Shown: piece after piece, positions 20,903 to 45,448 of the stretch
Numbering within the stretch: the stretch's first letter is position 1
Layout of the letters: each line of letters opens with the position of its first letter
NCBI GenBank assembly: GCA_038250515.1
Contig: JBBSCG010000001.1
Coordinates: forward strand, 25,155 to 89,154
DNA length: 64,000 nt
From: Candidatus Limnocylindria bacterium
GTDB lineage: Bacteria > Chloroflexota > Limnocylindria > QHBO01
Direction of reading: 5' to 3'
Notes under the pieces: model-generated
Told to the model about the DNA's origin: nothing
Databases searched by the model: none
What the model saw: the letters and a program-made list of their open reading frames with translations, nothing else
Position numbers and translations under genes: made by a program

Positions 20903-20956
20903 CTCACATGAGGACGAGCGCGTGGCTGTCGCGCGTGAGTGACGGTTTATCACTCG

Positions 20957-24054: not shown

Positions 24055-25578
24055 TCACCACGGCAGCTGCAGCGAGGTCAGGCCGGGTGAGGCGTTGACC
24101 GCGTCCAGGATGCGTTGCGCCGGCGCGCTGATGGCGTGCAGGATCGGTCCCGGGTAGACGCCGAGCGCCACCACCAGGATGATCAGCGGGGCGAGGGCCA
24201 GCCACTCGTTGCGGCTCATGTCCTTCAGCGTCGGCCAGAACCGGCGCATCCAGCCGGACGGAACCGTGAAGAACATGCGCTGGAACATCCACAGCATATA
24301 GACCGCGCTGGCAATGACGATCAGCGTGGTGATCCCGGCCACGATGCCGTTGTACCTGAACGTGCCGAGCAGGACCAAGAATTCACCGATGAATCCGGCC
24401 AGGCCCGGCAGGCCGATGCTGGCGAAGGTGAACAGCCCGAATATCGCAGCGTAGCGCGGCATCCGGGCATTGAGGCCGCCCATGTGCGCGATCTGCCGGT
24501 CATGTGTGCGCTCGTAGATGATGCCGACCAGCAGGAAGAGGGCACCGGTGATCACGCCGTGGGCCACCATCTGGAACACCGCCCCCTGGATGCCCTGCAT
24601 GTTGAACACGAACATGCCGAGCATCACGAAGCCCATGTGGCTGACGCTCGAGTAGGCGACCAGCTTCTTGAGATCCGGTTGCACCATGGCCACCAGCGCG
24701 CCGTACAGGATGGCAATCACTGCCAGCGTGATCATGATCGGCGCGAACTCCTTGGCGGCATCGGGCAGCAACGGCAGGCTGAAGCGCAGGAAGCCGTAGC
24801 CGCCCAGCTTGAGGAGCACGCCGGCCAGGATGATCGAGCCGGCGGTCGGCGCCTCGACGTGGGCATCGGGCAGCCAGGTGTGCAGCGGCCACATCGGCAC
24901 CTTGATGGCGAAGGCCAGGAAGAAGGCGATGAAGGCCAACGCCTGCAACCCATCGGTATAGCCGAAGCCGCGCAGCTGCTCGTAGGCGAAGGTGAACTCG
25001 TTGCCGGCCGATGCATGCGCGATGGCCACCGCCACGATGGCGACCAGCATCAGCAGCGAGCCTACGAGGGTGTAGATCACGAACTTGATCGTGGCGTAGA
25101 TGCGGCGCGGTCCGCCCCAGATGCCGATGATCAGGTACATCGGGATGAGGCTGATCTCCCAGAAGACGTAGAACAGAAAGAGATCCAGGCTGACGAACAC
25201 GCCCAGCATGCCGATCATCAGCAGCAGCATGGCGATGTAGTACTCCTTGACCCGCACCCTGATCGGATGCCAGGAGTAGAAGATCGAGACGACGCTGAGG
25301 ACCGTGGTCAGCAGGACCAGCACCGCCGAGAGCCCGTCGACGCCCAGCCGGTAGCCCATCCCGAAGGCAGGCACCCATTCGAGATTCTCGCGGAACTGGA
25401 ACTCCGCTCCCGAGGGCTGGTAGCCGAGCAGGAAGAGGCTGAAGCCGAAGCTGGCGAGCGCCGCCAGAAGGGCCACCCAGCGTACGAGGCGCTCATTGCC
25501 TCCCGGCACGCAGAGCAGCGCCAGCACGCCGACCAGCGGCATGAAGACGACGAGCGAGAGCACCGGCAGGCCGGGCAT
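24055..25578 (-). CDS. nuoM: NADH-quinone oxidoreductase subunit M
   Basis: MPGLPVLSLVVFMPLVGVLALL...HTWLPDAHVEAPTAGS. The start at M58 gives an ATGA overlap with nuoL. Confidence 0.85.
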   Translation of the reverse strand: MPGLPVLSLVVFMPLVGVLALLCVPGGNERLVRWVALLAALASFGFSLFLLGYQPSGAEFQFRENLEWVPAFGMGYRLGVDGLSAVLVLLTTVLSVVSIFYSWHPIRVRVKEYYIAMLLLMIGMLGVFVSLDLFLFYVFWEISLIPMYLIIGIWGGPRRIYATIKFVIYTLVGSLLMLVAIVAVAIAHASAGNEFTFAYEQLRGFGYTDGLQALAFIAFFLAFAIKVPMWPLHTWLPDAHVEAPTAGSIILAGVLLKLGGYGFLRFSLPLLPDAAKEFAPIMITLAVIAILYGALVAMVQPDLKKLVAYSSVSHMGFVMLGMFVFNMQGIQGAVFQMVAHGVITGALFLLVGIIYERTHDRQIAHMGGLNARMPRYAAIFGLFTFASIGLPGLAGFIGEFLVLLGTFRYNGIVAGITTLIVIASAVYMLWMFQRMFFTVPSGWMRRFWPTLKDMSRNEWLALAPLIILVVALGVYPGPILHAISAPAQRILDAVNASPGLTSLQLPW

Positions 25579-27809
25579 CAGCGCCAGACCAGGAAGGCGA
25601 TCAGGACCAGCACCAGTCCGGCGGCCATGCCCAGGCCGTAGTTCTCGACGCGCCCGGTCTGCACCTTGCGCAGACCGCCGCCGATCCAGTCGGCGAGCCT
25701 GCCGGTGCCGTTCACCGCTCCGTCGATCACTTTCGCGTCGAACCACCACAGCAGCTCGCCGACGATCACGCCGCCACGGGCGAAGATGAGCTGGTAGATG
25801 TCGTCGACGTAGTACTTGTTCACGCTGGCCCGATACATCCCCGGCCCGAGTCCGAACGGTATGCGCTCGACGAAGCGCGCCGGCTCCTCCGTACGCTGCA
25901 CGTACCAGCGGTAGGCCAGCAGGATCCCCAGCACGCCTGCCGCCGCGCCGACCAGCAGCAGCAGGCCGCCGCCGCCGAACAGCTCGAAGCCGTGATGCTC
26001 ACCGGCGGCGATCGAGCCGGGCAGGATGCCGGCGTGGTCGGACTCCTCGAAGACGCCGCCCAGCCAGCCGTGGATCAGGCCGCCCTCCGGCGGGAGGCCG
26101 AACAGCAGCCCGACCAGCACCGTCGGCACGGCCAGAATGGCCAGCGGCGCGACCATGGTCGCCGCCGATTCGTGCACGTGGCGCCAGACCTCGTGCGGGC
26201 CGCGCCATCGGCCATGGAAGGTCATGAAGATCATGCGGAAGGTGTAGAAGGCGGTCATGAAGGCGACCACGACGCCGACGAGATAGAAGAGCAGGTAGCC
26301 GCGGTTGAACGCCTCACCCAGGATCTCGTCCTTGCTGAAGAAGCCGGCAAAGATCGGAATGCCGGCAAGCGCCAGCGATCCGATGACCATGGTCCAGTAG
26401 GTCCATTTCATCTTCTCGCGCAGCCCGCCCAGCAGGCGCATGTCCTGCTCGCCGCCCGCACCGTGGATCACTGACCCGGAGCCCATGAACAGCAGCCCTT
26501 TGAAGAAGCCGTGGCTGACCAGGTGGAAGATGGCGGCCGCCCATGCGCCGATTCCCAGCGCGGTGAACATGTAGGCCAACTGGCTCACCGTCGAGTATGC
26601 GAGCACCTTCTTGATGTCGTTCTGGGTCAGCGCGATCGCCGCCGCGAAGATGGCGGTGAAGATACCGATGCCGGCCACCACCCACATGGCGATTGGCGCG
26701 TGGGCGAAGATCGGGTTGGAACGCGCGACCATGTAGACGCCGGCGTTCACCATGGTCGCGGCGTGGATCAGGGCGCTGACCGGGGTGGGGCCTTCCATCG
26801 CGTCTGGCAGCCAGACGTGCAGCGGGAACTGCGCGCTCTTGCCCACGGCGCCGGCGAAGAGAAGCAGCGCGATGATCGTCACCTGCATCTGGCTCACGCC
26901 ACCGATCCCCTCGAACACGCCGTCGAAGTTCAGGGTGCCGAGCAGCGTCCAGATCATCATGATTCCGAGCGCAAAGCCCAGGTCGCCGATGCGATTGACG
27001 ACGAAGGCCTTCTTGGCCGCACCGGCGGCTGAGGGCTTCTTGTACCAGAAGCCGATGAGCGCGTAGCTGCACAGGCCGACCGCTTCCCACCCGATGTAGA
27101 GCATCAGATAGTTGTCGCCCAGGATCAGCAGCAGCATGCTGAACATGAACAGGTTCAGATAGGCGAAGAAGCGCCAGAAGCCGCGGTCGCCGTTCATGTA
27201 GCCGATGGAGTAGACGTGGACCAGCAGGCCCACGCTGCTCACCACCAGCAGCAGCATGGCGGTCAGCGCATCGACGAAGAAGGCGATCTCGATCTTGAAG
27301 TCGCCGGATGCGATCCACTCATAGACCGTCACGTGGAACGTCTTGCCACCGAAGATGACGTTGGCGAAGACGACCATCGAGAAGAGCCACATGATCCCCA
27401 CGAGCGCGGTCGGTACGATCCAACTGCGGTAACGCGGCTGCGGCCCATCCGGCGCGACGTGGCCCGACTGGCCCAGGCCATTGTTCAGCTCCTCGGGGAT
27501 GACTCCATCTGCGCCCTGCGCGTTGGCCAGGTCGTCGGCGTGACCGGCGTGCGGGCTGGTTTCGGCCTGCTCCTCCTCGGTGGGCACGGACTCGAGCGCT
27601 TCCTCGACCTCGTCGTGCGCGTCGGGGGCGTGCGCCGCGACGTCGGCCGACTCGTGGACGTCGGCCGCATCGGTATCGGTCGGGTGCGCTTGGGCGTCGT
27701 AGTCGTCGTGCCCGTGTGACGGCACGTGGTCGAGGCGTGAGCCCACCAGCACGCTGAACAGGAAGCCGATCAGCGGCAGCGCCGGGATGAGCGCGATCAA
27801 CAGCTCCAC
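25578..27809 (-). CDS. nuoL: NADH-quinone oxidoreductase subunit L, with an acidic His-rich insertion of about 110 aa after TM1
   Basis: MELLIALIPALPLIGFLF...WLPDAMEGPTPVSALIHAATMV. At 743 aa it is well above the usual ~630 because of the insert HGHDDYDAQAHPTDTDAADVHESADVAAHAPDAHDEVEE... Confidence 0.85.
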   Translation of the reverse strand: MELLIALIPALPLIGFLFSVLVGSRLDHVPSHGHDDYDAQAHPTDTDAADVHESADVAAHAPDAHDEVEEALESVPTEEEQAETSPHAGHADDLANAQGADGVIPEELNNGLGQSGHVAPDGPQPRYRSWIVPTALVGIMWLFSMVVFANVIFGGKTFHVTVYEWIASGDFKIEIAFFVDALTAMLLLVVSSVGLLVHVYSIGYMNGDRGFWRFFAYLNLFMFSMLLLILGDNYLMLYIGWEAVGLCSYALIGFWYKKPSAAGAAKKAFVVNRIGDLGFALGIMMIWTLLGTLNFDGVFEGIGGVSQMQVTIIALLLFAGAVGKSAQFPLHVWLPDAMEGPTPVSALIHAATMVNAGVYMVARSNPIFAHAPIAMWVVAGIGIFTAIFAAAIALTQNDIKKVLAYSTVSQLAYMFTALGIGAWAAAIFHLVSHGFFKGLLFMGSGSVIHGAGGEQDMRLLGGLREKMKWTYWTMVIGSLALAGIPIFAGFFSKDEILGEAFNRGYLLFYLVGVVVAFMTAFYTFRMIFMTFHGRWRGPHEVWRHVHESAATMVAPLAILAVPTVLVGLLFGLPPEGGLIHGWLGGVFEESDHAGILPGSIAAGEHHGFELFGGGGLLLLVGAAAGVLGILLAYRWYVQRTEEPARFVERIPFGLGPGMYRASVNKYYVDDIYQLIFARGGVIVGELLWWFDAKVIDGAVNGTGRLADWIGGGLRKVQTGRVENYGLGMAAGLVLVLIAFLVWR

Positions 27810-27812
27810 GGC

Positions 27813-28118
27813 CTACTCCTTGAGGTCGTGGTACTCGTCGACCTCGGCCGTCTGACGAGTGCGGATGATGGCGATGATCAGCGCCAGACCGACGGTTGCC
27901 TCGGCCGCCGCCACGGCCATGATCATCAGCGCAAAGATGGCGCCATTGACCGATGCCGTCGGCCGATAGGCGTTGAACGCGACCAGGCTCAGGTTCACGG
28001 CGTTCAGCATCAGCTCGATGCAGATCAGCATCAGGATCGCGTTGCGGCGTGCCATGAAGCCGAAGGCACCGATCGCGAAGAGCACCGTGGAGACGATCAG
28101 ATAGCCGGCAAGGCCCAT
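27813..28118 (-). CDS. nuoK: NADH-quinone oxidoreductase subunit K
   Basis: 101 aa: MGLAGYLIVSTVLFAIGAFGFMARRNAILMLICIELMLNAVNL. Confidence 0.8.
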   Translation of the reverse strand: MGLAGYLIVSTVLFAIGAFGFMARRNAILMLICIELMLNAVNLSLVAFNAYRPTASVNGAIFALMIMAVAAAEATVGLALIIAIIRTRQTAEVDEYHDLKE

Positions 28119-28693
28119 CAGCCGGCTCGCTCGTCCTCTTCCGGCCGTCGGGCCAGGAAGATCGCGCCGATGATGGCGGCCAGCAGCAGCAGGCTGAGTA
28201 TCTCGAAGGGCAGGGCGTAGTCGGTGAAGAGCGCCGTGGCGAGGCCCTGCAGGTTCACGGCAACGGCAGCGGTGGCGGTGATCGTGCCCCAATCGGTCTG
28301 GAAGACGGCCCAACCGATCAATCCCACCACGATCAATGCGGCGAGCGCGGCGAACGGCACCTGGCGGTGGAACGGCGCGCGCAGGCTGGCGTCGCCGGCC
28401 TGGGTGAGCATGATCGCGAAGATGATCAGCACGCTGATGGCGCCGAGGTAGATGAGCACCTGTGCAGCGGCCACGATCGGCGCGCCGAGCAGCGCGTACA
28501 TGCCGGCCAGTGAGCCGAAGCAGACCATCATGGCGATCGCCGCGTGGATCACGTTGCGGAGGGTCACGACGGCAAGCCCACCACCGACCACACCGATGGC
28601 GAGCACAACGAACAGGACGCCGGTGATATCCAGGGTTGAACGCTCCCGTTGGAGTTTTTCGAGCGCACAGCGGCTGCCCGCGACGCAACACAA
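28118..28693 (-). CDS. nuoJ: NADH-quinone oxidoreductase subunit J
   Basis: VLFVVLAIGVVGGGLAVVTLRNVIHAAIAMMVCFGSLAGMYALLGA. The start is uncertain (TTG at 28693 or downstream). Confidence 0.7.
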   Translation of the reverse strand: MCCVAGSRCALEKLQRERSTLDITGVLFVVLAIGVVGGGLAVVTLRNVIHAAIAMMVCFGSLAGMYALLGAPIVAAAQVLIYLGAISVLIIFAIMLTQAGDASLRAPFHRQVPFAALAALIVVGLIGWAVFQTDWGTITATAAVAVNLQGLATALFTDYALPFEILSLLLLAAIIGAIFLARRPEEDERAG

Positions 28694-28767: not shown

Positions 28768-30150
28768 TCACGCGCGAGGCAGGAGGTAGGTCTCCAAACC
28801 TTCCTCGAGTGGTGTGAGGCGCCGCGGCATCCGATCCAGCAGTGGTCGCGTATCGGTCTCGGCCGGCTGGTTCACGAAGTCGACGCCTCCAGGCGTCAGC
28901 GGCCGGCCGGGAACGAATTGCAGCAGCGATGCCGCGAGCTTTACCAGCGGCGCCGGCGCCGGGAGCAGCGGCCGCCGAAGCTTCGCCACGCGGAGCGCAC
29001 GCCGGATCACCTCGCGCATGGACATGGTCTCCGGACCGCCGATCTCGAAGACCCGGTTGTGCGCCGCATCGGCGACCAGCGAGTCGGCGACCAGCTCGGC
29101 GACGTCGCGCACGAAGACGGGGGCCAGCGGCTGTCCGCCGAAGTTGCTGAGCGGGACGAATGGCAGCGTGCGCGCGAAACCGAGGAACCGATTGAGCGCC
29201 ACGTCGCGCGGCCCGAAGATCCACGTCGGCCGGATGATGGTGTAGTCGATCCCGCTGTGCCGGATAGCCTCCTCGGCGCGCCACTTGGCTCGGAACCAGT
29301 GTCGTTCGGCATCAGGCGCCGCGCCCGCGCCGGACATGTAGACCAGCCGGGTAACTCCGGCCTGTTTCGCAGCCGTGGTGAGCCGCTCCGTGCCCGCCGC
29401 GTCGACGGCCTCGAAGGTCCAGCCTTTCGCCGGATCCTCCATCGGCAGATTGGGAAAGGCGAGCGCGATGGCGAGCGCGTCGACGCCGCGGAGGGCGTCG
29501 ACCAAACCGTCGGCCCGGGAGACATCGGCCTCGCGAATCTCGACGCCGTCGGGCAGATTCTCGCCAGCCGTCTTCGGGTTGTGGCTCAGCACCACGACGC
29601 TGTGGCCGCGGCGGTGCAGCTCGGCAGCAATCTCGCCGCCGACGAAGCCTGATCCGCCGGCGACGGCGACGGTCATCGGTTGCTCAAGGCTTGCGCGCAG
29701 GGGCAGCAGGCGCTCCATTGCCGCACCGCGGTAGCCGAAGGTCTGCTCGAGCCGCGGCCGGACGACGAACCGGTTCAGGAGGTCGCCCAGCGGCCCGAAC
29801 GGCAGCCCGTAGGTGACCTCGTCCTCGACGCGGGTCCCGCCCGCCTCCTCGCTGAACGAATGCACGTGGTGCCAGCGCCGGTACGGCCCGCGCAGCTGGA
29901 CGTCGTCGAAATGCGCGTCACTCACGTAGTCGTTGATCACGCTCGTCCAGCCGATCGCGATCCCGAGGAAGGGTCGGATGCGGCAGTCGATGACTAAACC
30001 CGTGCGCATCTGGCGATCTGCCGAGCGCAGCTCAAAGCCCAGCCCGTCCGGGGTCAGCCGTCCGAGGTTCTCGGGCATGGCGAAGAACGTGAAGACTTCG
30101 CGCAATGGCCGATCCACGTGCTGGCTGGCCCGAATGGTGTGTGTGCTCAT
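28768..30150 (-). CDS. Fusion protein: N-terminal SRPBCC (START/Coq10-like) domain plus C-terminal NAD(P)-binding epimerase/NmrA/NDUFA9-like Rossmann domain
   Basis: The N-terminus HVDRPLREVFTFFAMPENL...GPYRRWHHVHSF fits the SRPBCC fold. The C-terminus MTVAVAGGSGFVGGEIAAELHRRGHSVVVLSHNP...YMSGAGA carries a Rossmann GxxGxxG. It sits between nuoJ and the nuoG-like gene. Confidence 0.6.
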   Translation of the reverse strand: MSTHTIRASQHVDRPLREVFTFFAMPENLGRLTPDGLGFELRSADRQMRTGLVIDCRIRPFLGIAIGWTSVINDYVSDAHFDDVQLRGPYRRWHHVHSFSEEAGGTRVEDEVTYGLPFGPLGDLLNRFVVRPRLEQTFGYRGAAMERLLPLRASLEQPMTVAVAGGSGFVGGEIAAELHRRGHSVVVLSHNPKTAGENLPDGVEIREADVSRADGLVDALRGVDALAIALAFPNLPMEDPAKGWTFEAVDAAGTERLTTAAKQAGVTRLVYMSGAGAAPDAERHWFRAKWRAEEAIRHSGIDYTIIRPTWIFGPRDVALNRFLGFARTLPFVPLSNFGGQPLAPVFVRDVAELVADSLVADAAHNRVFEIGGPETMSMREVIRRALRVAKLRRPLLPAPAPLVKLAASLLQFVPGRPLTPGGVDFVNQPAETDTRPLLDRMPRRLTPLEEGLETYLLPRA

Positions 30151-30324
30151 GATCGTGTTGAACTCTCGACTCGCTATGAGCGCGCAGGTGGATCACCAGC
30201 GCGTATACCGGCTACCTTGATGTAGGAAGTATGGGTCCCTATACCGGCTACTGTCAAGGTGCAAGTAAGCCATGAACCGCGCGCTGCCCGCACGCTCATC
30301 AACTTCGACAAAGATGGGATCCGT

Positions 30325-32712
30325 CTAGCGGGTGGGACGCTCCCGATCGGACATCTCCAAGATGTCGAGCATCGGCAGATCACGCTGGTACTCGCTGAAC
30401 TCGAACTCGGGGCCGCAGCGGAGGGCGTCGTACGGGCAGGCATCGGCGCAGATGCCGCAGAAGATGCAGCGCGAGACGTCGAGCTGGTAGGTCTCCAGCG
30501 TCCGCGGCCGCGGCATCAGGGCGCCCACCGGGCACGTTTCGGCGCATCGGCCGCAGGAGACGCATGGCGTCTCGTTCAGAGAAACGAAGTCTGCGGTGGT
30601 GACCAGCGAGTCGAAGCCCTTGCCGATGAAGTCGTAGCAGCCGGCGCCGACGATGTCCTTGCAGACCTGGGCGCATCGGCCGCAGTCGATGCAGCGTGAG
30701 TAGTCGCGCAGGATGAAGGAATGCGTCTCGTCACGCCCGTAGCCGTGGTTGACACCGACATATGGGTTGTCCTGGATCGAACGCTCATCGATCGCCATGT
30801 TGAGCGTCGTCTCGTACTCGATCGCCGCCTCGCGCAGGTCGCAGTGGCCGATCGCCTCGCAGGTGCACTGCAGGCAGCGGTCGGCCTCCGCCATCGCCTG
30901 GTCGTGGGTGTAGCCGTATTCGTACTCGTTGAAGTTGTCGCGTCGCTGTTCCGCGTCGCCCTTGCCCATCAACGCGCGCGGCTCCTTCACGTCGTCGGTG
31001 AAGGGCACGATGGTCAGGAAGCTCGGCTGCGGCTCCGACACGATGCGGCGCACCTGCGGATCGTCGAGGTCGTGGCCGCGGAGCCAGTAGTCCATCGCGT
31101 ACGATGCCCGTCTGGCCTCCCCGATCGCCTCGACCACCGTGGCCGATCCGGTGCGGACATCGCCCGAGACGAAGACTTTCGGCACGTTGGTGCGGAAGAT
31201 GTCCTCCTCGCTGACGAGCGTGCCACGCCGCGAGACCTCCAGGGCGGAACGAATCTCCTCCGGCTCCGTCTCGATCCAATGCAGGTCGGGCCCCTGGCCG
31301 ATGGCGCCCAGCACGGTGTCGCAGTCGACCACGAACTCGGTGCCGGGCATCGGCTCGGGACGGCGGCGACCCTTTTCGTCGGGCTCGCCGAGCTTCATGC
31401 GCTGGAACTCGACGCCGGTCACTCGGTCGTTCTTGTCGGTGACGATGCGCGTCGGCGCGGCCTGGAAGATGACCCGCGCGCCCTCCTCGATTGCCTCATG
31501 CACCTCGTCCTGGGCGGGCATGTCCTTCAGGTCGCGGCGGTAGACCAGGGTCACTTCCGCAGCGCCCTGCCGGATCGAGGTGCGTGTGCAGTCGATTGCG
31601 GTGAACCCGCCGCCGATGACCACCACGCGGGCATCGTGCAGCTTGGGCACGGTCACGCCGCGGGTCGAGTTGTAGAGGTTCTCGAGAGCGTTGACCATCC
31701 CGTCGGCCTCCTCGCCAGGGATGCCGAGCACGTTCGACTGGTAGCAGCCGATCGAGATGTAGATGGCGTCGTAGTCGGGCAGCAGGTCGCCAATGTGGAA
31801 ATCGCGGCCGAGGCGCATATTCGGCTTCAGCCGCGCGCCGAGCTCCCAAACGTGGTTCAGCTCGCGGTCCATCCAGCCCTTCGGCAGACGGTACTGCGGG
31901 ATGCCGTAGCGCAGCATGCCGCCCTGCTCGGGCTCCGCCTCGAAGACGTCGCACTGATGGCCGCGCAGCTGCAGGTAGTACGCGTTGGCCATCCCGGCAG
32001 GGCCGGCGCCGATGACCGCCACGCGCTTGCCCGTCGGCGGGTCCTTGGGCCACGGGATGGGAGCCGGAGCATCGACCTCCAAAACGCGGTCTGCGCAGTA
32101 GCGATGCGAATCGCGGATGGCGATCGCGGTGTCCACCTCTTCCCGGCGGCAATGCGTCTCGCACGGTGCCGGGCACACGCGGCCGAGGATCGCCGGGAAC
32201 GGCAGCGAGCGCTTCAGGATGCGCGTCGCCTCTTCCCAGTTGCCGAGGGTGTTCTGCTTCAGGTAGCCGGGGATGTCGACCCGCGTCGGGCACTTGAACT
32301 GGCAGGGCGGCAGACAGTACGCGTCGTGGTCGGAGAAGATGAGCTCGAGGACCATCCGGCGGTTCTCGATCAGCCGATCCGAGTGGGTGGTGATGACCAT
32401 CCCCTCGTCGATCTTGGTGCCGCATGAGATGGGCGTATCCTCGCGTCCCTCGACCTCGACGACGCAGATGCGGCAGGCACCGTAGGGCGCCAGCTTCGGC
32501 TCGTAGCACAGGGTCGGCACGTCGATGCCCAGCACGCGGCAGGCCTGCAGGATGGTCTGGCCCTCCTCGGCCTGCATCTGCTCGCCGTCGACCGTGACGC
32601 TGATCTTGCGGGTGCCGGGCACCATCGGCCAGGTCGGCGTGTAGTCCTCGATCTTGCCGTTGCCGTGGCCGTTCCCGTTGCGGCCGTTGCCGTTCGTCGT
32701 GCCGAAGGTCAT
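30325..32712 (-). CDS. Multidomain Fe-S flavoprotein (795 aa): NuoG-N/HoxU-like 2Fe-2S domain, GltD-like NAD(P)H:FAD oxidoreductase, NuoG-like 4Fe-4S segment and NuoI-like 2x[4Fe-4S] C-terminus
   Basis: The 2Fe-2S region is KISVTVDGEQMQAEEGQTILQACRVLGIDVPTLCYEPKLAPYGACRICVVEV. The GltD N-terminal cluster region CLPPCQFKCP...GRVCPAPCETHC is followed by FAD/NAD folds VAVIGAGPAGMANAYY and VVVIGGGFTAIDC. RCIDCGRCAQVCKD is the NuoG-like 4Fe-4S motif. The C-terminus CVSCGRCAETCPVGAL...CIFCGICADACPYDAL...PEFEFSEY matches the NuoI C-terminus. The N-terminus carries an (Asn-Gly)n low-complexity run. Confidence 0.6.
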   Translation of the reverse strand: MTFGTTNGNGRNGNGHGNGKIEDYTPTWPMVPGTRKISVTVDGEQMQAEEGQTILQACRVLGIDVPTLCYEPKLAPYGACRICVVEVEGREDTPISCGTKIDEGMVITTHSDRLIENRRMVLELIFSDHDAYCLPPCQFKCPTRVDIPGYLKQNTLGNWEEATRILKRSLPFPAILGRVCPAPCETHCRREEVDTAIAIRDSHRYCADRVLEVDAPAPIPWPKDPPTGKRVAVIGAGPAGMANAYYLQLRGHQCDVFEAEPEQGGMLRYGIPQYRLPKGWMDRELNHVWELGARLKPNMRLGRDFHIGDLLPDYDAIYISIGCYQSNVLGIPGEEADGMVNALENLYNSTRGVTVPKLHDARVVVIGGGFTAIDCTRTSIRQGAAEVTLVYRRDLKDMPAQDEVHEAIEEGARVIFQAAPTRIVTDKNDRVTGVEFQRMKLGEPDEKGRRRPEPMPGTEFVVDCDTVLGAIGQGPDLHWIETEPEEIRSALEVSRRGTLVSEEDIFRTNVPKVFVSGDVRTGSATVVEAIGEARRASYAMDYWLRGHDLDDPQVRRIVSEPQPSFLTIVPFTDDVKEPRALMGKGDAEQRRDNFNEYEYGYTHDQAMAEADRCLQCTCEAIGHCDLREAAIEYETTLNMAIDERSIQDNPYVGVNHGYGRDETHSFILRDYSRCIDCGRCAQVCKDIVGAGCYDFIGKGFDSLVTTADFVSLNETPCVSCGRCAETCPVGALMPRPRTLETYQLDVSRCIFCGICADACPYDALRCGPEFEFSEYQRDLPMLDILEMSDRERPTR

Positions 32713-32717
32713 GGTCG

Positions 32718-34085
32718 CTATGCTACCGGCTCGACGCCGGACACGGGCGTGAGCAGCGGGGGAAGGTCCGCAGTCTGGCACGAGCCGGCCAGGCAGATGC
32801 CGCGCTCCGCGTGGGCGCGGTACTCGTCGGGGAAGCGCTCGAGCGTCGTCAGCATCGGTCCCGGCGCGCGCGCCTCGAGGTGGCACAGCGCCGTGTCGTG
32901 CATCTTGCGCGACAGCTCGCGCAGCAGCGTGAAGTCGTCCGGACGGGGTGTCGCCGCCAGGATCCGGTCGAGCGTTTCGACCAGGCGCTTGGTGCCGATC
33001 CGGCAGGGCACCGCCTTGCCGCACGCCTCGCGGGCGGAGTGGTCCAAAAAGAAGCGTGCCGTGTCGACCATGCAGATGCTCGCATCGGTCACCAGGATGG
33101 ATCCAAGGCCGATGACGGCGCCTGCGGCGCCGAGCGTCTCGAAGTCGTACGGCGTTTCAAGACTGGCCGCATCGATGGCTCCGCCACCCGACCCGCCGAT
33201 GAACAGCGCCTTGGTGCTGCCCGTCCCGCCGCCGGCCGCGGAGAGCAGCTGAATGAGCGGGATTCCGAGCGGCACCTCGATCAGCCCCGCTTCGGGCACC
33301 TTGCCGAAGATGCTGACCAGCTTGGTGCCTTTGCTGGTCTCCGATCCGACCGATGCGAAGGCCTCCGCGGAGTGCGCCAGGATCCATGCCGCGTGAGCTA
33401 GCGTCTCGGCGTTCTGCACCACGGTCGGCGCGTTCATGAAGCCACGTTCGGTGGGGTAGGGCGGACGGATGATCGGCATGCCGCGATCGCCGGCCAGCGC
33501 CGCCAGCAATGCCGTCTCCTCGCCGGCGACCAGCGCACCGGAGCCTTCCCACAGTGCGACCTGCACGCTGACGTCCGTCCCCAGGATGAGATAGCCGGCC
33601 ATGCGCGCGGCCTCGGCCTCGGCGATTGCGCCACGTAGCCGCTCGATCGCCAGCGCCCAGTCACGTCGCACGGCCATGTACGTCTCGCTGGCGCCGACCG
33701 CGAATGCGGCGATCAGCAGACCCTCCAGCACGAGGTGCGGATTGCCCTCGGCGAGTGCGCGATCGCCCAGCGCGGTGGGGTCGGCACCCATCAGGTTGGC
33801 GACGACCACCTTGCGCTCGGCGTCGGCGGAGCGGGCCGCCCGCCATTTGTTGGCGGTCGGGTAGCCCGAGCCGCCCCGGCCGCGCAGCTGCGCCGAGCCG
33901 ATCTCACCGATGGTGGCCTCGGGTCCGAGCTTGCCGATTGCGCGCTCAAGCCCGTCGTAGCCGCCGTGCTGCCGGTAGCTCTCAAGCGACGTGGGATCGA
34001 TCCGACCGATGTCGGTCAGCAGGCGCGGCTCGCCACCACGCAGGATGCGGATCTGCGGCGAGAGGCCGGCGATCTCGTTGGCCAT
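32718..34085 (-). CDS. NuoF (51 kDa)-like subunit with non-canonical FMN motif and a 3-Cys N3 site
   Basis: GRGGSGYPTANKW and GSGALVAGEETALLAALAGDRGMP match the NuoF NADH-binding folds. The FMN loop reads VVANLMGADP where CNADEGEPG is canonical. The N3 motif reads ACGKAVPCR (middle Cys replaced by Ala) plus the distal ALCHL. Confidence 0.65.
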   Translation of the reverse strand: MANEIAGLSPQIRILRGGEPRLLTDIGRIDPTSLESYRQHGGYDGLERAIGKLGPEATIGEIGSAQLRGRGGSGYPTANKWRAARSADAERKVVVANLMGADPTALGDRALAEGNPHLVLEGLLIAAFAVGASETYMAVRRDWALAIERLRGAIAEAEAARMAGYLILGTDVSVQVALWEGSGALVAGEETALLAALAGDRGMPIIRPPYPTERGFMNAPTVVQNAETLAHAAWILAHSAEAFASVGSETSKGTKLVSIFGKVPEAGLIEVPLGIPLIQLLSAAGGGTGSTKALFIGGSGGGAIDAASLETPYDFETLGAAGAVIGLGSILVTDASICMVDTARFFLDHSAREACGKAVPCRIGTKRLVETLDRILAATPRPDDFTLLRELSRKMHDTALCHLEARAPGPMLTTLERFPDEYRAHAERGICLAGSCQTADLPPLLTPVSGVEPVA

Positions 34086-34087
34086 GC

Positions 34088-34942
34088 TCAGTGCGCCCCG
34101 GCCGGCTGGCGAGTACCGGAGGTCGGCTCGGCTGCAGCGTGCCGCCGCTCGTGGACCAGGTGCAGCGCTTGCTCCGTGCTCAGCGGTCCGTAGACCAACG
34201 TGTCGACACGCACGGCTGGCGCGATGGCACCCGCGCCCACATCGCTCGACGTTTCGAGGCTGAAGCGGCCGTCATCGGTCGCCTCGCCGGGAGCGACGCC
34301 CAGCTCGCTGCGCAGCGCAGCCAGGATTTGATCGCCGCCCGCGAAGCGGCAGGCCGCGCAGTCGCACACGGTGATGATGTGGCCTTCGCCGGGAAGCAGG
34401 CGAAAGCCGCCCAAGCCGGCGGCGCCGAAGACCTGCGCCCAGTGGATCGTCGTCCGGTCGCTGATCAGCCGCAGTGCGCGCTCGGGCAGGTAGCCGTAGC
34501 GCGTCTCGACCGCCTGGAAGATGGCGACCAGTGCCTCCGGCTTCGCCCCGAAGCCGTCCACCAGCTCGTTGACCCAGTCGGTGTCGATGGCCTCGTCCCA
34601 GCGGGCCGCGTTGCGCATCGGTCGTGCGGGAAGGCCGGTGCGGCGGTAGGCGTTCGGATCCTTGCGCTCGTCGTAGATCTCCGGCATGCCGTATCGGATG
34701 CGGTTGCCCTGCGAGTCGAAGCCGCTCATGTCGATCGCCTCGACCGGGCATACCATGGCGCACTGGAAGCAGACCTCGCACTTGTGCTCGCCGAACGGGT
34801 CGTAGATGAGGTCGAGGCGGCCACGCCATCGGTCGGAGAGCTGCGGACGCGTCTCGGGATACTGGCGCGTGACCTTCGTCGAGAAGAAGTTGCGCAGGGT
34901 CGTGGCGAAGCCCTTGACAATGCCAGTGCCGGGAATGGCCAT
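34088..34942 (-). CDS. Fusion of the NuoI N-terminal half (one 4Fe-4S motif) with an NuoE (24 kDa)-like thioredoxin-fold domain lacking two of four 2Fe-2S cysteines
   Basis: The N-terminus TTLRNFFSTKVTRQYPETRP...RGRLDLIY...CEVCFQCAMVCPVEAI is the NuoI N-terminus, but the second CxxCxxCxxxCP is absent. The C-terminus YGYLPERALRLISDRTTIHWAQVFG...HIITVCDCAACRFAGGDQILAALRSELGVAPGEATDDGRFSLETSSDVGAGAIAP is NuoE-like, with Cys3 and Cys4 replaced by D and G. Confidence 0.6.
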   Translation of the reverse strand: MAIPGTGIVKGFATTLRNFFSTKVTRQYPETRPQLSDRWRGRLDLIYDPFGEHKCEVCFQCAMVCPVEAIDMSGFDSQGNRIRYGMPEIYDERKDPNAYRRTGLPARPMRNAARWDEAIDTDWVNELVDGFGAKPEALVAIFQAVETRYGYLPERALRLISDRTTIHWAQVFGAAGLGGFRLLPGEGHIITVCDCAACRFAGGDQILAALRSELGVAPGEATDDGRFSLETSSDVGAGAIAPAVRVDTLVYGPLSTEQALHLVHERRHAAAEPTSGTRQPAGAH

Positions 34943-34958: not shown

Positions 34959-35969
34959 CTACAGCTTGAAGACGACGACCACGATGGCCGTCACGAACAG
35001 ATTGACAAGGGCCAGCGGCAAGAGCACCTTCCAGGCCATGCCCATCAGCTGGTCGACGCGCACGCGCGGCAGGGTGGCGCGGGCCCAGATGGAGACGAAG
35101 ACGAAGAAGTACGTCTTGAGCAGGAACCAGAAGAGGCCGTAGATCGTGCCGCCGAAGCCGCCGAGCTGCGCCGGGAACGGCCACGGCGCAAGCCAGCCAC
35201 CGAAGAAGAGCGTCACCAGGATGGCGCTCATGATGAACAGGCTGACGTACTCGGCGAAGAAGAAGAAGCCGAAGCGCATGCCCGAGTACTCGGTCGCGAA
35301 GCCGGCCACGATCTCCGAATCGGCCTCGACCATGTCGAACGGCGTGCGGTTGATCTCCGCGGTCGAGGCGATGAAGAAGACCGGTAGGCCAATCCACTGC
35401 CACAGGATCGCCCAGCCGTGATGGTGCTGCCAGTCGATGATATTGGTGAAGCTCAGCGTGCTGGTCAGGATGACCACGCCCACGATCGACAGCGTCAGCG
35501 GGATCTCGTAGCTGACCATCTGCGCTGCGCTGCGCAGCCCGCCGAGCAGCGAGTACTTGTTGTAGCTGGCCCAGCCGGCGACCAGCAGTCCGACCACCGA
35601 CAGGCCGATGATGGCGAAGAAGTAGATGACGCTGATCTCGGAGTCGAGTGCCACGAGGCCCGGCGCGAAGGGGATCACCAGCATGCTCATGGCGGCCGCC
35701 ATGAACACCATCCAGGGCGCCATGGTGAAGATCGGCCGGTCCGCCTGGTCCGGCGTGAAGTCCTCCTTGGCGAGCACCTTGAACCCGTGAATCGCGCTCT
35801 GGAACACGCCGGCCGGTCCCACCCGGTTCGGACCGATGCGCAGCTGCATCAGAGCGATCACCTTCAGCTCGAGGTAGATGATGATGAAGGCGGTTGGGAC
35901 GGTGAGCAGCAGCAGCAGGGTCGTGGCCAGCACGAAGCGCCCGACGCCGAGCAGCAGGTCGGGCTCCAT
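34959..35969 (-). CDS. nuoH: NADH-quinone oxidoreductase subunit H
   Basis: IIIYLELKVIALMQLRIGPNRVGPAGVFQSAIHGFKVLAKEDF matches the NuoH signature. Confidence 0.85.
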   Translation of the reverse strand: MEPDLLLGVGRFVLATTLLLLLTVPTAFIIIYLELKVIALMQLRIGPNRVGPAGVFQSAIHGFKVLAKEDFTPDQADRPIFTMAPWMVFMAAAMSMLVIPFAPGLVALDSEISVIYFFAIIGLSVVGLLVAGWASYNKYSLLGGLRSAAQMVSYEIPLTLSIVGVVILTSTLSFTNIIDWQHHHGWAILWQWIGLPVFFIASTAEINRTPFDMVEADSEIVAGFATEYSGMRFGFFFFAEYVSLFIMSAILVTLFFGGWLAPWPFPAQLGGFGGTIYGLFWFLLKTYFFVFVSIWARATLPRVRVDQLMGMAWKVLLPLALVNLFVTAIVVVVFKL

Positions 35970-37253
35970 CTACTTGTCGACGCCGCCCATGATCGGATCG
36001 AGGCTGGCCATGATCGCCATGGTATCGGCCAGCAGATGACCGGGCATCAGCTTCGGCATTACCTGGAGCGTGATGTAGCTGGGGTCGCGCATGCGGAACC
36101 GATACGGGTTTGGCCCGCCATCGCTGATCGCATACACGCTGTACAGGCCGCGCGGACTCTCGATCGCGGCGTAGGCGCGCCCCGGCTTCGGACGGATGAT
36201 GCCCGGCACCTGCGCCTGCACCGGGCCGTGCGGCATCCGCTCGACGATCTGGTCGATGAGGTGGATGCTCTGCTTGATCTCGGCCACGCGCTGCAGGTAC
36301 CTGGCGTAGGTGTCGCCGGCCTGCTGGGTCACGACGTCGAACTCGAGCTCGTTGTAGATCGAGTACGGGTGCGCCTTGCGCACGTCGAACGGCACGCCGC
36401 TGGCGCGCAGGTTGGGTCCAGTCACCCCCAGGTTCACTGCGTCTTTGGCGGTCAGGATGCCGAGCCCCTTGGTCCGCGCCGTGAAGATCTCGTTCTGGGT
36501 GAGTAGCAGCTCGTTGTCGCCGATGGTCTTGGCCACGTTGCTGCGCCACGTCGAGAGGCGCGAGATGAACTCATCGCTGATGTCCCAGTTCACGCCGCCG
36601 ACGCGGAAGAAGTTGAAGAGCATGCGCTGGCCGCTGATGCTCGAGAGGAGCTCGACCGTCTCGTCGCGGTTGATGAAGCCATACAGGATGGGCGTGATGC
36701 CGCCCATGTCGAGCGCCAGGAAGCCCATCATCAGGGCGTGGCTGAAGACGCGGTTGAGCTCGACCACCAGCGCCCGGATGTACTCGGCGCGCTTTGGGAC
36801 CTCGACGTCGTATAGCTTCTCGAAAGCGATCGCCGGCGCGTGCTCGTTGTGCATCGCCGACATGTAGTCCATCGGGTCGACGTAGGTCAGGACGGTGGTG
36901 TAGGTCGCGTTCTCGCACAGCTTCTCGATGCCGCGGTGCAGGTAGCCGAGCACCGGGTCGAGATCGGTGACCACCTCGCCGCGCACCTTGACCAGCAGTC
37001 GCATGACGCCGTGGGTCGAGGGGTGCTGCGGACCCATGTTGAGCAGCATCTCGCCCTCGCCGACCGAGAAGAGGCGGCGCTCACGCTCGGTCTGCGGCGG
37101 ACGATCCGGCAGGCCCACCTGTTCGAAGCCGGCGTACTCGCCCCGGCCCTCGCCGCGCGAGCCGAGGCCGGCCGCGGCGCGCAGCCGTTCCTCTTCTTGG
37201 CGGTCGAGATCGATCGGATCGGGGATGCGGACGTCGGGATCGATGGCGGTCAT
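35970..37253 (-). CDS. nuoD: NADH-quinone oxidoreductase subunit D (49 kDa) with an N-terminal extension of about 55 aa
   Basis: EMLLNMGPQHPSTHGVMRLLVKVRGEVV... and C-terminal LADTMAIMASLDPIMGGVDK match NuoD. Confidence 0.85.
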   Translation of the reverse strand: MTAIDPDVRIPDPIDLDRQEEERLRAAAGLGSRGEGRGEYAGFEQVGLPDRPPQTERERRLFSVGEGEMLLNMGPQHPSTHGVMRLLVKVRGEVVTDLDPVLGYLHRGIEKLCENATYTTVLTYVDPMDYMSAMHNEHAPAIAFEKLYDVEVPKRAEYIRALVVELNRVFSHALMMGFLALDMGGITPILYGFINRDETVELLSSISGQRMLFNFFRVGGVNWDISDEFISRLSTWRSNVAKTIGDNELLLTQNEIFTARTKGLGILTAKDAVNLGVTGPNLRASGVPFDVRKAHPYSIYNELEFDVVTQQAGDTYARYLQRVAEIKQSIHLIDQIVERMPHGPVQAQVPGIIRPKPGRAYAAIESPRGLYSVYAISDGGPNPYRFRMRDPSYITLQVMPKLMPGHLLADTMAIMASLDPIMGGVDK

Positions 37254-37849
37254 CGCGGTCGGCTCTTGTCGGCCAGCGTCTTGTCGGCCTCGACCGCGGT
37301 CTCCTCGCTGCCCGGATGGCTGCGGCCCACCGGCAGCGCTTCGCTGAAGCGCGTCAGGTCCCAGGTCTCCGGGCGCTCGAGCGGGTTCACGCCGGCGGCC
37401 GATGAGTCGGCGGCATCATCGGGCAGCAAAAAGTCGCGACGCTGCGGGAAGGATCGGTAATCGGGCGACATGAAGATGCGACGCAGGTCGGCGTTGCCCT
37501 CGAAGACGATGCCCATCATGTCGTACATCTCGCGCTCGTGGAACATGGCGCCCTCCCACAGCCCCGTGACACTCGGCGTGCGCGGGTCCTTGCGATCGAC
37601 AGGGACGCGGATGCGCAGCCAGGCAGGATGACGCTCGCTGTACAGGTGGTAGACGACCTCGAACCAGTTCTCCGGGCCGTAGTCAACGGCGGCGGCATCG
37701 GCCAGGAAGAAGAATCCGAACTCGTCGTCGTCACGCAGCCTGCGCAGCGTCTCCACGATCTGGTCGCGCGGCACCTGGACCTCGACGGTGTCCGCATCGG
37801 TCCAGAGCTGGCTGACCGCGCCCGGGAAGCGGTCGAGCAGCAGGCGCAC
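37250..37849 (-). CDS. nuoC: NADH-quinone oxidoreductase subunit C (30 kDa)
   Basis: FGFFFLADAAAVDYGPENWFEVVYHLYSERHPAWLRIRV...HEREMYDMMGIVFEG. The long ORF runs back into nuoB, so the true start (possibly GTG near 37849) is uncertain. Confidence 0.7.
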   Translation of the reverse strand: MRLLLDRFPGAVSQLWTDADTVEVQVPRDQIVETLRRLRDDDEFGFFFLADAAAVDYGPENWFEVVYHLYSERHPAWLRIRVPVDRKDPRTPSVTGLWEGAMFHEREMYDMMGIVFEGNADLRRIFMSPDYRSFPQRRDFLLPDDAADSSAAGVNPLERPETWDLTRFSEALPVGRSHPGSEETAVEADKTLADKSRPR

Positions 37850-37875
37850 CAGGGTGCCTGCCTGAGCGGGTGCGG

Positions 37876-38532
37876 TCAGCGCACGTCTCCTTCCCAGGCC
37901 TGGCGTTGCGGCCCGCGATCGACGTACGTGCTCCAGTGACCGCGGCGTTCCTTGACGAGCTCCTGCAGCCGCATCAACCCGTGGATCAGCGCCTCCGGGC
38001 GCGGCGGGCAGCCCGGTACGTAGACGTCCACCGGCATCACCCGGTCGACACCCTGCACCACGCTGTAGCTGCGCTTGAAGCGGCCGCCGGAGGTCGTGCA
38101 GGTGCCCATCGCGACGCACCACTTCGGTTCGGGCATCTGCTCCCAGAGGCGAACCAGCGGTCCGGCCATCTTGGTCGTCAGCGTACCGGCCACGATCAGC
38201 ACGTCCGCTTGCCGCGGGCTGGCGCGGAACGGGAACATGCCGAAGCGGTCCATGTCATTCATGCTCGTCGCGGTGCTCATCATCTCGATGGCGCAGCAGC
38301 TCAGGCCGGAGAGCAGCGGCCACAGCGAGTTGGCGCGGATCAGATCGAGCAGGTAGTCCGCCTTGGTGGGAATGACCTCCAGCAGACCATGGAAGCCGCC
38401 GCGCGGATGGTCCTCCAGGTCGAACTCGCGCAGCATGTCATCGTCCGCCGCGGCGTCGGGAATGATGATCGGCATGGGCACGTCGAGCGGGGCGATGCCC
38501 TCGGTGGGCCGGTCGGGTGTCTTCAGCGCCAT
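37876..38532 (-). CDS. nuoB: NADH-quinone oxidoreductase subunit B (20 kDa, N2 cluster)
   Basis: [18 protein letters not shown]...[12 protein letters not shown]...[13 protein letters not shown]. The start is at M65. Confidence 0.85.
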
Positions 38533-38882: not shown

Positions 38883-39006
38883 GTGAGCTCCTCGCAAGGC
38901 GATGCCGTCGCCGGCCGCCTCGCGTCATTGGTGTCAATCGTGTTCCCGCGCTCAGTCTAGCAGTCCCTCCGCCGCACGTCGGTTGCCCCACACGGCGGCA
39001 CAACGG

Positions 39007-40681: not shown

Positions 40682-40773
40682 GCTGGCACCATCACACGAT
40701 ATTCCGATCCGTAACGTGCCGTGCGGCGCTCATTTGTCATCTATCGGCCGCGCGCCGCGCCGGGGCATCGGTC

Positions 40774-45435: not shown

Positions 45436-45448
45436 CGGTCTGTGCGAC

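Follow-up and report, generated by a model that had tools for sequence, protein, structure and literature searches.

The question raised by this 64,000-nt stretch of DNA from a Candidatus Limnocylindria bacterium (contig JBBSCG010000001.1; the whole stretch is called the window below) is what delivers electrons to the complex I that it encodes. The donors known for complex I are NADH, F420H2 and ferredoxin. On the minus strand of the window (G+C 66-70%), where all the relevant genes lie, nuoA-B-C-D-H is followed by three unusual genes, by a further open reading frame (ORF4) and by nuoJ-K-L-M-N. The three genes encode, in turn, the N-terminal part of NuoI fused to a NuoE-like domain (ORF1, whose NuoE-like domain is named E' here), a NuoF-like protein (ORF2, or F'), and a fusion of the NuoG N-terminus, a GltD-type domain, a ferredoxin domain and the C-terminal part of NuoI (ORF3). 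The reading that we favour, probable rather than certain, is that of a complex I with canonical quinone (Q) and proton-pumping (P) modules, in which NuoEFG would have been replaced by a trimmed derivative of Nfn-Bfu/StnABC and electrons would enter from NADPH.

The architecture A-B-C-D-H-[I'-E']-[F']-[G'-GltD-I'']-J-K-L-M-N had been proposed in an earlier, sequence-only reading of the window, and it was borne out by Pfam/NCBIfam assignments and by some 80 loci. Full-length homologs of ORF3 number more than 100 (795-894 aa, 58-90% identity) and, where named, belong to Chloroflexota/Candidatus Limnocylindria; when one genome per GTDB species was scanned, at least 581 stretches encoding a relative came up. 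The 80 of these that were compared here come nearly all from Limnocylindria metagenome-assembled genomes and include a complete 2.09-Mb chromosome. Both the gene order and the gene boundaries were constant in these ~80 species-representative loci and in long ENA contigs. In the near clade ORF3 is 83-95% identical to that of the window; for the far clade, identity to the window is ~60% in ORF3, ~56% in NuoD, ~60% in NuoH, 36-39% in E' and 40-44% in F'. Junctions between the module genes of the window are tight (TGA-GC-ATG and TAG-CGACC-ATG).

Kinship and condition of the inserted module

Searches with hidden Markov models upheld the Complex1_51K, 2Fe-2S_thioredx, Fer2_4, Fer4_20 and Pyr_redox_2 assignments, and the module could be divided into the following features.

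34709..34942, minus strand: ORF1 residues 1-78, NuoI N-half with the first CxxCxxCxxxCP motif (C55, C58, C61, C65, P66)
34571..34708, minus strand: ORF1 residues 79-124, linker from NuoI-N to the NuoE-like domain (near-clade per-column conservation 0.87)
34151..34570, minus strand: ORF1 residues 125-264 (E'), NuoE/BfuC-like thioredoxin-fold domain with a remodelled 2Fe-2S site (Pfam 2Fe-2S_thioredx, E 1e-23)
32718..34085, minus strand: ORF2 (F'), 455 aa, core of a Bfu-type B subunit/NuoF homolog (Complex1_51K, SLBB, NADH_4Fe-4S)
32380..32610, minus strand: ORF3 residues 35-111, N-terminal [2Fe-2S] domain, A1/N1b-like (Fer2_4, E 7e-21; C69, C80, C83 and C97 invariant)
31114..32361, minus strand: ORF3 residues 118-533, His-x3-C-x3-C-x3-CP motif and GltD/NfnL-type domain (Fer4_20, Pyr_redox_2; PRK12814, E 1.7e-163)
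30841..30876, minus strand: ORF3 residues 613-624, CxxCxCxxxxxC with invariant C613, C616, C618 and C624, second half of the His-ligated cluster site
30517..30714, minus strand: ORF3 residues 667-732, Stn/HydA-type 2x[4Fe-4S] ferredoxin domain (motif m1 C674-C684, motif m2 C717-C727-P; cysteines invariant)
30328..30504, minus strand: ORF3 residues 737-795, NuoI C-half with the second CxxCxxCxxxCP motif (C749-C759-P) and the GPEFEFSEY tail

As judged by their matches in the PDB, the three inserted proteins are closer to Bfu-type subunits, including those of the NADPH-linked Nfn-Bfu/StnABC enzymes, than to NuoEFG. F' matched 9bov_B with an E-value of 3.7e-119 (402 bits), StnB (8oh5_B) with 5.7e-117 and NfnB (9n5u_B) with 1.6e-112, whereas its best NuoF match reached only ~1e-74 (254 bits). 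Residues 35-759 of ORF3 matched 9bov_A (1e-167), StnC (8oh5_C; 3e-149) and NfnA (9n5u_A; 2e-139), and the best matches of E' were HydC, 9bov_C and StnA. This descent escaped the sequence-only reading, as did the unreduced form of the module found in Thermoleophilia-type loci and the likeness of ORF4 to NDUFA9, both described below.

With the Nfn-Bfu/StnABC enzymes (Sporomusa ovata 8OH5, Caldicellulosiruptor saccharolyticus 9BOV, NfnABC 9N5U) the module has in common the gene order NuoE-like, NuoF-like, NuoG-N plus GltD, the H-x3-C-x3-C-x3-CP and CxxCxC..C motifs around the GltD insertion, the FAD/NADPH motifs, and clusters A1-A4, A6 and A7 of the A subunit. In ORF3 the GltD insertion splits the His-ligated cluster site into two halves, and a CxxCxC-type half of this kind was described for StnC (PMC7483475). 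The differences are equally distinct. Nfn-Bfu/StnABC enzymes are soluble tetramers, whereas the module of the window, as far as its genes tell, belongs to a nuo operon and carries one half of NuoI at either end. Its A subunit is without the formate-dehydrogenase-like (Fdh-like) domain and the A5 cluster of that domain, and has the NuoI C-half in its place: ORF3 ends at residue 795, while 9bov_A (1178 aa) and 8oh5_C (1172 aa) run ~420-470 residues further. In the B subunit the cluster/Zn domains at both termini are missing, the FMN loop is altered and the B1 site is left with three cysteines; two of the canonical 2Fe-2S cysteines are gone from the C subunit, and His replaces the Lys ligand of A7.

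ORF3 combines Fer2_4, Fer4_20, Pyr_redox_2 (GltD) and Fer4 motifs with the NuoI C-terminus; its residues 118-533 hold two [4Fe-4S] sites, FAD and NADPH Rossmann folds and the VYRRD motif. No molybdopterin domain was detected in ORF3 by Pfam/NCBIfam searches and PDB alignments, in agreement with the sequence-only reading, and no NuoG molybdopterin domain is encoded anywhere in the window. The complete GltD-type FAD/NAD(P)H unit which that reading placed on the Fe-S chain also stood: in an alignment of 15 ORF3 orthologs (alignment A1) the columns G235/G237/G240, G367-G369 and Y391 R392 R393 were invariant, as were the ligands of clusters A1, A2, A3, A4, A6 and A7, with an invariant His203 as the A7 ligand. 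The GltD FAD/NADPH domain with its clusters is the most conserved part of the module, and ORF3 is its most constrained gene (dN/dS 0.09-0.15 against five relatives). The first 34 residues of ORF3 (32611-32712) form an Asn/Gly-rich, low-complexity tail, TTNGNGRNGNGHGNGK; in the consensus of far-clade orthologs in alignment A1, a GNG-rich tail is found at the C-terminus instead.

The state of E' and F' is different. Alignment to solved structures upheld the unusual residues read earlier at their cofactor sites (ANLMGADP, ACGKAVPCR and CDCAAC...SSDVGAG). In E', VCDCAAC...SSDVGAG stands where VCxxxAC...CLGAC is expected, so that C193, an extra C195 and C198 are present and D234 and G238 occupy the positions of the distal cysteines. 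At the third canonical position the near clade has Asp or Glu and the far clade Cys; at the fourth, the near clade has Gly and the far clade Ser, Pro or Gly. The extra Cys195 (CxCxxC) is present in every ortholog that has any residue at this alignment position, and it could replace a lost ligand.

F' covers only residues 107-524 of StnB (StnB numbering being that of F' plus 84) and has neither a thioredoxin-like domain at its N-terminus nor a 2x[4Fe-4S] domain at its C-terminus. Its FMN loop reads ANLMGADPTALGDR against CNADEGDPGAFMDR in solved structures, with ANLMGADP instead of CNADEGDP. At the position of the FMN-loop Asp (StnB D183) the near clade has Met, the far clade Phe and a further reduced locus, L086, Tyr; the near clade has, in addition, Gly in place of the adjacent Glu. 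The aromatic residue before xCGEE is Leu185 in the window, and varies in the near clade between Tyr (34) and Leu (22). The cluster motif is EACGKAVPCR against ESCGKCxxCR. Among 70 orthologs (57 near-clade and 13 far-clade) the B1/N3 motif was C-G-K-[A/T]-x-P-C-R with a distal Cys: three cysteines were invariant in all 70, and the missing one was always the second, replaced by Ala or Thr. This pattern would fit a [3Fe-4S]-like site.

The sequence-only reading had suggested that NADH entry via FMN, N1a and N3 is compromised. The changes at these sites are real, but the conclusion holds only in part: the sites appear remodelled and conserved, as the three N3 cysteines illustrate, and not randomly decayed. 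The dN/dS values against the five relatives (ORF1 0.14-0.23, ORF2 0.14-0.25) are like those of the core subunits (nuoD 0.13-0.25, nuoN 0.13-0.32); therefore E' and F' are, by the measure of purifying selection, functional proteins. In terms of known input modules, the window has neither the CNADE FMN loop, four-Cys N3, four-Cys N1a and NuoG molybdopterin-like C-terminal domain of the canonical N-module, nor the Bfu core as defined by Schut et al. (2022), namely FMN, five metal or cluster sites in B and one 2Fe-2S cluster in C. A second nuoE/F/G-like set was not found within the 64-kb window, where tblastn with the A, B and C subunits of locus L085 returned one set only.

The Bfu core is intact in three relatives. 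Loci L085, L087 and L088 have the identical operon order with an unreduced module, and their A subunit again ends in the NuoI C-half. The B subunit is of the complete Bfu type (635-643 aa; L085 10774-12684, L087 5094-7025, L088 10756-12663), with the N-terminal thioredoxin-like and C-terminal 2x[4Fe-4S] domains and the motifs CNGDEGDPGAF, GAGAFVCGEETAL, INNVET and ESCGKCVPCR, and the C subunit is canonical. L086 carries another reduced form, with ANAYGADPS in the FMN loop and Gly in place of the third B1 cysteine. When 1.84 billion representatives were searched with ORF1, further full-length NuoI-N::NuoE fusions appeared at 29-52% identity; several of the distant ones carry canonical Cx4C...Cx3C ligands, and their relatives form a large family, the ORF1 homolog of L087 being labelled Thermoleophilia by NCBI. 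Identity between the window and L085 is 43.7% for the A, 42.7% for the B and 31.8% for the C subunit. The full B subunit is approximately 65% identical to the core of Sporomusa StnB, and the reduced F' forms are approximately 40-49% identical to everything, including each other; therefore, the version in the window appears to be derived and trimmed, a reduced form of the module. The Thermoleophilia-type relatives themselves might be enzymes that depend on ferredoxin and NAD(P)H and are linked to quinone.

Division of NuoI between ORF1 and ORF3

NuoI was said earlier to be split, and the two pieces indeed align to complementary segments of Nqo9/TYKY. The 284-aa ORF1 (34088-34942) has a single CxxCxxCxxxCP motif in its NuoI N-half; its residues 6-78 align with TYKY/NDUFS8 74-146, and residues 9-73 with Thermus Nqo9 7-71. 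On the side of ORF3 (30325-32712, 795 aa), residues 725-778 align with Nqo9 73-126 and residues 738-780 with TYKY 151-192. Joining ORF1 1-84 to ORF3 736-795 in silico gave a product of 144 aa with one continuous NuoI/TYKY alignment (product residues 6-132 against TYKY 83-205; 93 bits, E 1e-25), with a gap of 4 residues where the two pieces meet. In every ortholog examined, from both clades, the eight cysteines and two prolines of the divided protein were invariant. By these alignments the two NuoI pieces are exactly complementary.

One detail had to be revised. The third ORF was previously described as holding a lone NuoG-type CxxCxxC motif and a full NuoI 2x[4Fe-4S] domain, whereas it contains the two motifs of a Stn/HydA-type domain (m1 and m2, which align with their counterparts in 9bov_A and 8oh5_C) and then the second NuoI motif only (m3). 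HMMER aligned m3 onto the A5 motif of NfnA/StnC. A different pairing, in which m2 and m3 make up a complete NuoI-like ferredoxin and the ORF1 motif goes with m1, was rejected as less parsimonious: m1 and m2 align to the Stn/HydA two-cluster domain, and ORF1 together with m3 rebuilds a colinear NuoI. Structurally the rejected pairing is still feasible, since no more than ~20 residues separate m2 from m3 and certain NuoI chains could be aligned with either.

The simplest reading of this arrangement would involve insertion of a stnA-B-C-like operon, in frame, between the two nuoI cluster motifs of an 11-subunit-type nuo operon. The NuoI N-half would thereby have been fused to the C/NuoE-like subunit, giving ORF1, and the C-half to the A subunit, giving ORF3, where it would be placed exactly at the position of the inactive Fdh-like domain of NfnA/StnC. 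The halves would then reassemble into the 2x[4Fe-4S] fold and dock the module onto NuoB/C/D/H. It was shown previously that the N-terminal domain of NfnC occupies a cleft beside the Fdh-like domain (PMC11829005); therefore, by analogy, both fusion points plausibly converge in space.

Proposed electron route and competing explanations

How electrons would pass through such an enzyme can be proposed by homology with the solved Nfn and Stn structures. In Csac NfnABC the path is FAD-A7-A6-A3-A2-A1-B1-FMN, and A2-A4-A5 forms a dead-end remnant of a formate-dehydrogenase wire (PMC11829005); StnC likewise has a dead-end branch, Stn C1/C2 (PMC10482914). The invariant cluster ligands of ORF3, its FAD/NADPH folds and the YRR motif led us to propose a route from NADPH to quinone. 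In the most likely version NADPH would reduce FAD in the GltD domain, from which electrons would pass to A7 (with His203 for Lys), A6 and the His-ligated A3, then through the ferredoxin-domain clusters, A2 and possibly A4, to N6a/N6b of the reassembled NuoI, and finally to N2 in NuoB and menaquinone, while the canonical membrane arm would pump protons. Electrons would leave for the quinone module through what was once the A2-A4-A5 dead end, or else from the His-ligated cluster, as they do in canonical complex I. An NADPH-linked donor, raised as a possibility in the sequence-only reading, thus remains the most likely one.

The part played by E' and F' follows from what they have lost. Bifurcation depends on the flavobicluster [B1-FMN-C1] and on the B3/B4 path (PMC11829005). 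F' is without the terminal domains, the FMN-loop Asp and the four-Cys B1, and E' is without canonical C1; therefore, bifurcation to ferredoxin has probably been lost. Both proteins might act as a scaffold with remodelled Fe-S sites or provide a residual NAD(H) site.

Several points weigh against this reading. Specificity of the GltD domain for NADPH over NADH is read solely from the YRR motif, which is common to the NADPH-specific Stn and Csac enzymes. An AlphaFold2 model of ORF3, built from the 15-sequence alignment, had a mean confidence score (pLDDT) of 53.5, with residues 560-795 below 30; because it was unusable at that level, the reassembly of NuoI and the distances between clusters were inferred. 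Finally, F' retains most residues of the NAD(H)/FMN site, and no ligand varies in A1, the 2Fe-2S cluster that leads to it, so that a second, NADH-linked entry is conceivable.

The latter points bear on the strongest alternative, a dual-input or transhydrogenating complex I, which we regard as rather unlikely, although it deserves serious attention. In such an enzyme F' would keep flavin and NAD(H) in a modified pocket, and NADH and NADPH would both be oxidised, the former via F', the three-Cys cluster, A1 and A2, the latter via GltD; or the two pools would be equilibrated while quinone is fed. Both clades preserve in F' the LRGRGGxG[YF]PT loop, K80/W81, GEET, Y/F210, the G326/G328 loop and D102. 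This set takes in the NAD-contacting positions of Csac NfnB (glycine-rich loop, K80, E189/E190, Y/F75, Y/F210 and loop 3), two adenine-stacking aromatics among them (PMC11829005, PMC10482914). D102, which is invariant, corresponds to StnB D186 and Nqo1 E97; the mapping to Thermus Nqo1 relies on the D186 = E97 equivalence given in the Stn paper (PMC10482914) and on an ungapped alignment. The invariance of the three F' cluster cysteines and of the A1 cluster, the compensating extra cysteine of E', the core-like dN/dS of E' and F', and the retention of NNVET and the loop Glu in far-clade F' point in the same direction. However, the Asp equivalent to StnB D183 has become Met, Phe or Tyr in every reduced lineage, and in the window Gly takes the place of the Glu next to it and Leu that of the aromatic before xCGEE. 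The B1 cysteine lost is the second in Limnocylindria but the third in L086, which suggests relaxed need for an intact cluster, and between the clades F' evolves much faster than ORF3 (42% against 60% identity).

Input of NADPH through the GltD domain could also be reversed, proton-motive force driving electrons from quinol to NADP+ and supplying NADPH for biosynthesis. Complex I is reversible, and this is one ground for considering such operation. It is also known that the GltD site of Nfn/Stn enzymes physiologically makes NADPH (PMC11829005, PMC7483475), and the position of an ORF4 homolog beside heliorhodopsin and photolyase genes in locus L084 hints at light-linked physiology in the class. 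Reverse operation nevertheless seems improbable: the gene contexts are those of ordinary heterotrophs, and if this is the sole complex I it has to run forward for respiration. It is, moreover, a variant of the favoured model in direction, which we infer to be forward, and not an exclusive alternative to it.

Still less credence can be given to a ferredoxin-dependent, confurcating complex I resembling Nuo-Bfu, in which NAD(P)H and reduced ferredoxin would jointly reduce menaquinone. The module does descend from a Bfu-family enzyme, and such activity may hold for the full forms in L085, L087 and L088, where the N-terminal and C-terminal 2x[4Fe-4S] domains of BfuB are retained, but F' of the window has neither terminal domain, no canonical FMN loop and no four-Cys B1, and E' has no canonical C1 ligands. 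The idea that a canonical nuoE-F-G-I set was broken by frameshifts, a caveat of the sequence-only reading, draws on the unusual gene boundaries only and can practically be dismissed, since the same boundaries and order recur in ~80 independent genomes and several long-read-scale contigs, the window has no NuoG molybdopterin domain, an inserted GltD domain cannot come from a frameshift, and all three module genes are under purifying selection.

A presumably NADPH-fed complex I with a Stn-derived module has to be set against the systems known so far. With canonical complex I (Thermus Nqo1-15, E. coli NuoA-N) it has in common the 11 core subunits, the N2 ligands and quinone-site residues, and the NuoG-like N-terminal 2Fe-2S cluster and His-ligated cluster. 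It differs in gene order, in the absence of the NuoG C-terminal domain, in having NuoI on two polypeptides, in the non-canonical ligand sets of FMN loop, N3 and N1a, and in the extra FAD/NADPH domain. Nuo-Bfu is a predicted complex I with BfuABC input from Geobacter, Deferribacteres, Planctomycetes and Nitrospirae (Schut et al. 2022, PMC9304861). There, too, a Bfu-type ABC module lies in the middle of the nuo cluster in place of NuoEFG and a proton-pumping quinone reductase was predicted (PMC9304861). As described in PMC9304861, however, Nuo-Bfu has 14 subunits (A-N) and a full BfuBC core, no GltD domain or split NuoI is mentioned, and Chloroflexi and Actinobacteria are not among the reported hosts; the window departs from that definition by its split NuoI, the GltD NADPH site in the A subunit and the reduced BC core.

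Other relatives of complex I with alternative donors provide a broader precedent. In Mbx-like clusters a gltD-related subunit replaces NuoI (Degli Esposti 2015, PMC4758237). The resemblance of the window to Mbx-like clusters, Fpo and NDH-1 lies in an 11-subunit core combined with a different electron-input module, Mbx-like clusters offering the precedent of a GltD-type flavoprotein; in all of these, in contrast, a separate subunit is attached, and none has been described with a split NuoI or a three-subunit module derived from Nfn-Bfu. Fpo is supplied by F420H2 through FpoF, and cyanobacterial and chloroplast NDH-1 by ferredoxin. As far as its gene content tells, the system of the window is a complex I with an alternative input module, outside the canonical N-module, the Bfu core and Nuo-Bfu as defined. 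Full-text literature searches, whose coverage leaves out most subscription journals, found no paper on a split NuoI or on an Nfn/Stn module in complex I.

We put forward, only tentatively, that these loci represent an undescribed and widespread class of complex I which arose by in-frame insertion of an Nfn-Bfu/Stn operon, the Limnocylindria form being an NADPH:menaquinone oxidoreductase and the Thermoleophilia form a four-substrate converter. Limnocylindria and Thermoleophilia are abundant in soil and freshwater metagenomes. If the proposal is true, the reduced form would be the first proton-pumping complex I with NADPH as its physiological donor, present in hundreds of species-level genomes of Limnocylindria from soil and freshwater, and the Thermoleophilia form would connect both a still intact bifurcating core, for NADH and ferredoxin, and an NADPH site with the quinone and proton-pumping machinery. 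Models of redox balance and energy yield in both groups would be altered by an NADPH-fed, proton-pumping enzyme. The evolutionary route would also be unusual: a whole operon lodged within a gene, the split Fe-S subunit left as a tether for the new module, and the 'dead-end' cluster branch of soluble Nfn/Stn enzymes turned into a productive wire. The series from full to reduced forms would constitute a natural experiment on which parts of the Bfu flavobicluster are dispensable after loss of bifurcation, and the idea of a 'membrane-bound Bfu', predicted and uncharacterised, would gain concrete, testable examples.

Core subunits, ORF4 and surrounding genes

The remainder of the cluster is ordinary. 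Pfam searches showed the ten core subunits NuoA, B, C, D, H, J, K, L, M and N to be canonical, as read earlier; with NuoI counted as two complementary halves, all 11 core subunits of the Q- and P-modules are encoded together. The N2 ligands in NuoB (SCC...C...GCPP) and the quinone-site motifs in NuoD (HPSTHG, PMDY) are both present.

38523..38897, minus strand: nuoA (Oxidored_q4, E 2.7e-29)
37876..38532, minus strand: nuoB (Oxidored_q6; SCCAIE...CVAMGTC...GCPP as N2 ligands; start at MALKTPD inferred)
37250..37879, minus strand: nuoC (Complex1_30kDa, E 5e-38; start approximate)
35970..37253, minus strand: nuoD (Complex1_49kDa, E 1e-85; quinone-site motifs; N-terminal extension of ~45 aa)
34959..35969, minus strand: nuoH (NADHdh, E 1e-112)
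28118..28693, minus strand: nuoJ (Oxidored_q3)
27813..28118, minus strand: nuoK (Oxidored_q2)
25578..27809, minus strand: nuoL (Proton_antipo_N and Proton_antipo_M; acidic/His-rich insert of ~100 aa after TM1)
24055..25578, minus strand: nuoM (Proton_antipo_M)
22587..24050, minus strand: nuoN (Proton_antipo_M)

The NuoL insert (27400-27740) is a stretch of ~100 aa between transmembrane (TM) helices 1 and 2, acidic, rich in His, Asp and Ala and of low complexity. The ortholog in locus L083 is likewise long (731 aa); far-clade NuoL has 667 aa. Extra N-terminal residues precede the conserved domains of NuoD (~45) and NuoB (~60), and could form contact surfaces for the unusual input module.

A separate problem is ORF4, which the sequence-only reading had listed in the operon as an SRPBCC-epimerase fusion.

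28768..30150, minus strand: ORF4, 460 aa, with a weak, sub-threshold SRPBCC-type match in its N-terminal region and an NAD-binding domain of the short-chain dehydrogenase/reductase (SDR) type
30204..30267, minus strand: promoter-like site (TTGACA-18-CATACT) and direct repeat upstream of ORF4

Among solved structures its SDR domain came closest to complex I 39-kDa/NDUFA9 subunits, whose leading matches span 4e-25 to 1e-14: Paracoccus 9g83_P scored 4e-25 and the mitochondrial NDUFA9 subunits 6e-20 to 1e-11, the best SDR match outside complex I reaching 3e-11; by these scores, ORF4 belongs to the NDUFA9-like atypical SDR group. Members of its family (460-535 aa, 59-83% identity) occur commonly among Limnocylindria. 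Membership in the operon was confirmed for the window and for L083, a genome syntenic with it, where ORF4 occupies the same slot between ORF3 and nuoJ, but it does not extend to the other 82 related loci, in which ORF4 is absent from the slot; its role as a conserved subunit throughout the family was accordingly rejected. The parallel with the NDUFA9/39-kDa subunit of mitochondrial and Paracoccus complex I lies in the matches of its SDR domain and in the location of the gene inside the nuo cluster of the window and L083; the weak SRPBCC-type N-terminal region, the slot left empty in most relatives and the position next to light-response genes in L084 are points of difference. It may be a lineage-specific accessory subunit, which we consider a lead and not a finding.

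Two perfect copies of the 12-nt repeat TATACCGGCTAC, at a spacing of 36 nt, overlap the promoter-like site and might serve as a pair of operators; in L083 the corresponding ORF3-ORF4 spacer measures just 44 nt. In L084 (ENA ERZ25039476 contig_3312, 1-17461) the ORF4 homolog, 62% identical, lies beside DNA photolyase and heliorhodopsin genes, with a MerR/B12-binding regulator and a sigma-70-like factor as further neighbours. The SRPBCC/NDUFA9-like protein may be light-regulated in some Limnocylindria.

The gap between ORF3 and nuoJ varies in the near clade from ~0.1 to 7.5 kb (L003-L068; for example, L054 12310-15743, L030 12376-18967 and L056 12454-19966). It contains unrelated genes, often on the opposite strand, among which a VanZ-like membrane protein and ECF sigma/anti-sigma pairs were recognised by eye; therefore, the near-clade nuo cluster probably consists of two transcription units. 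In far-clade and Thermoleophilia loci nuoJ directly follows the ORF3 homolog.

The genes flanking the nuo cluster of the window are of the housekeeping type. Downstream of nuoN (19332-22582) are found trehalose-6-phosphate synthase, trehalose phosphatase and a sortase-domain protein, and upstream of nuoA (39007-46570) a DinB-family protein, thymidylate kinase, an AAA/R3H/PTPase-domain protein and PdxT/PdxS.

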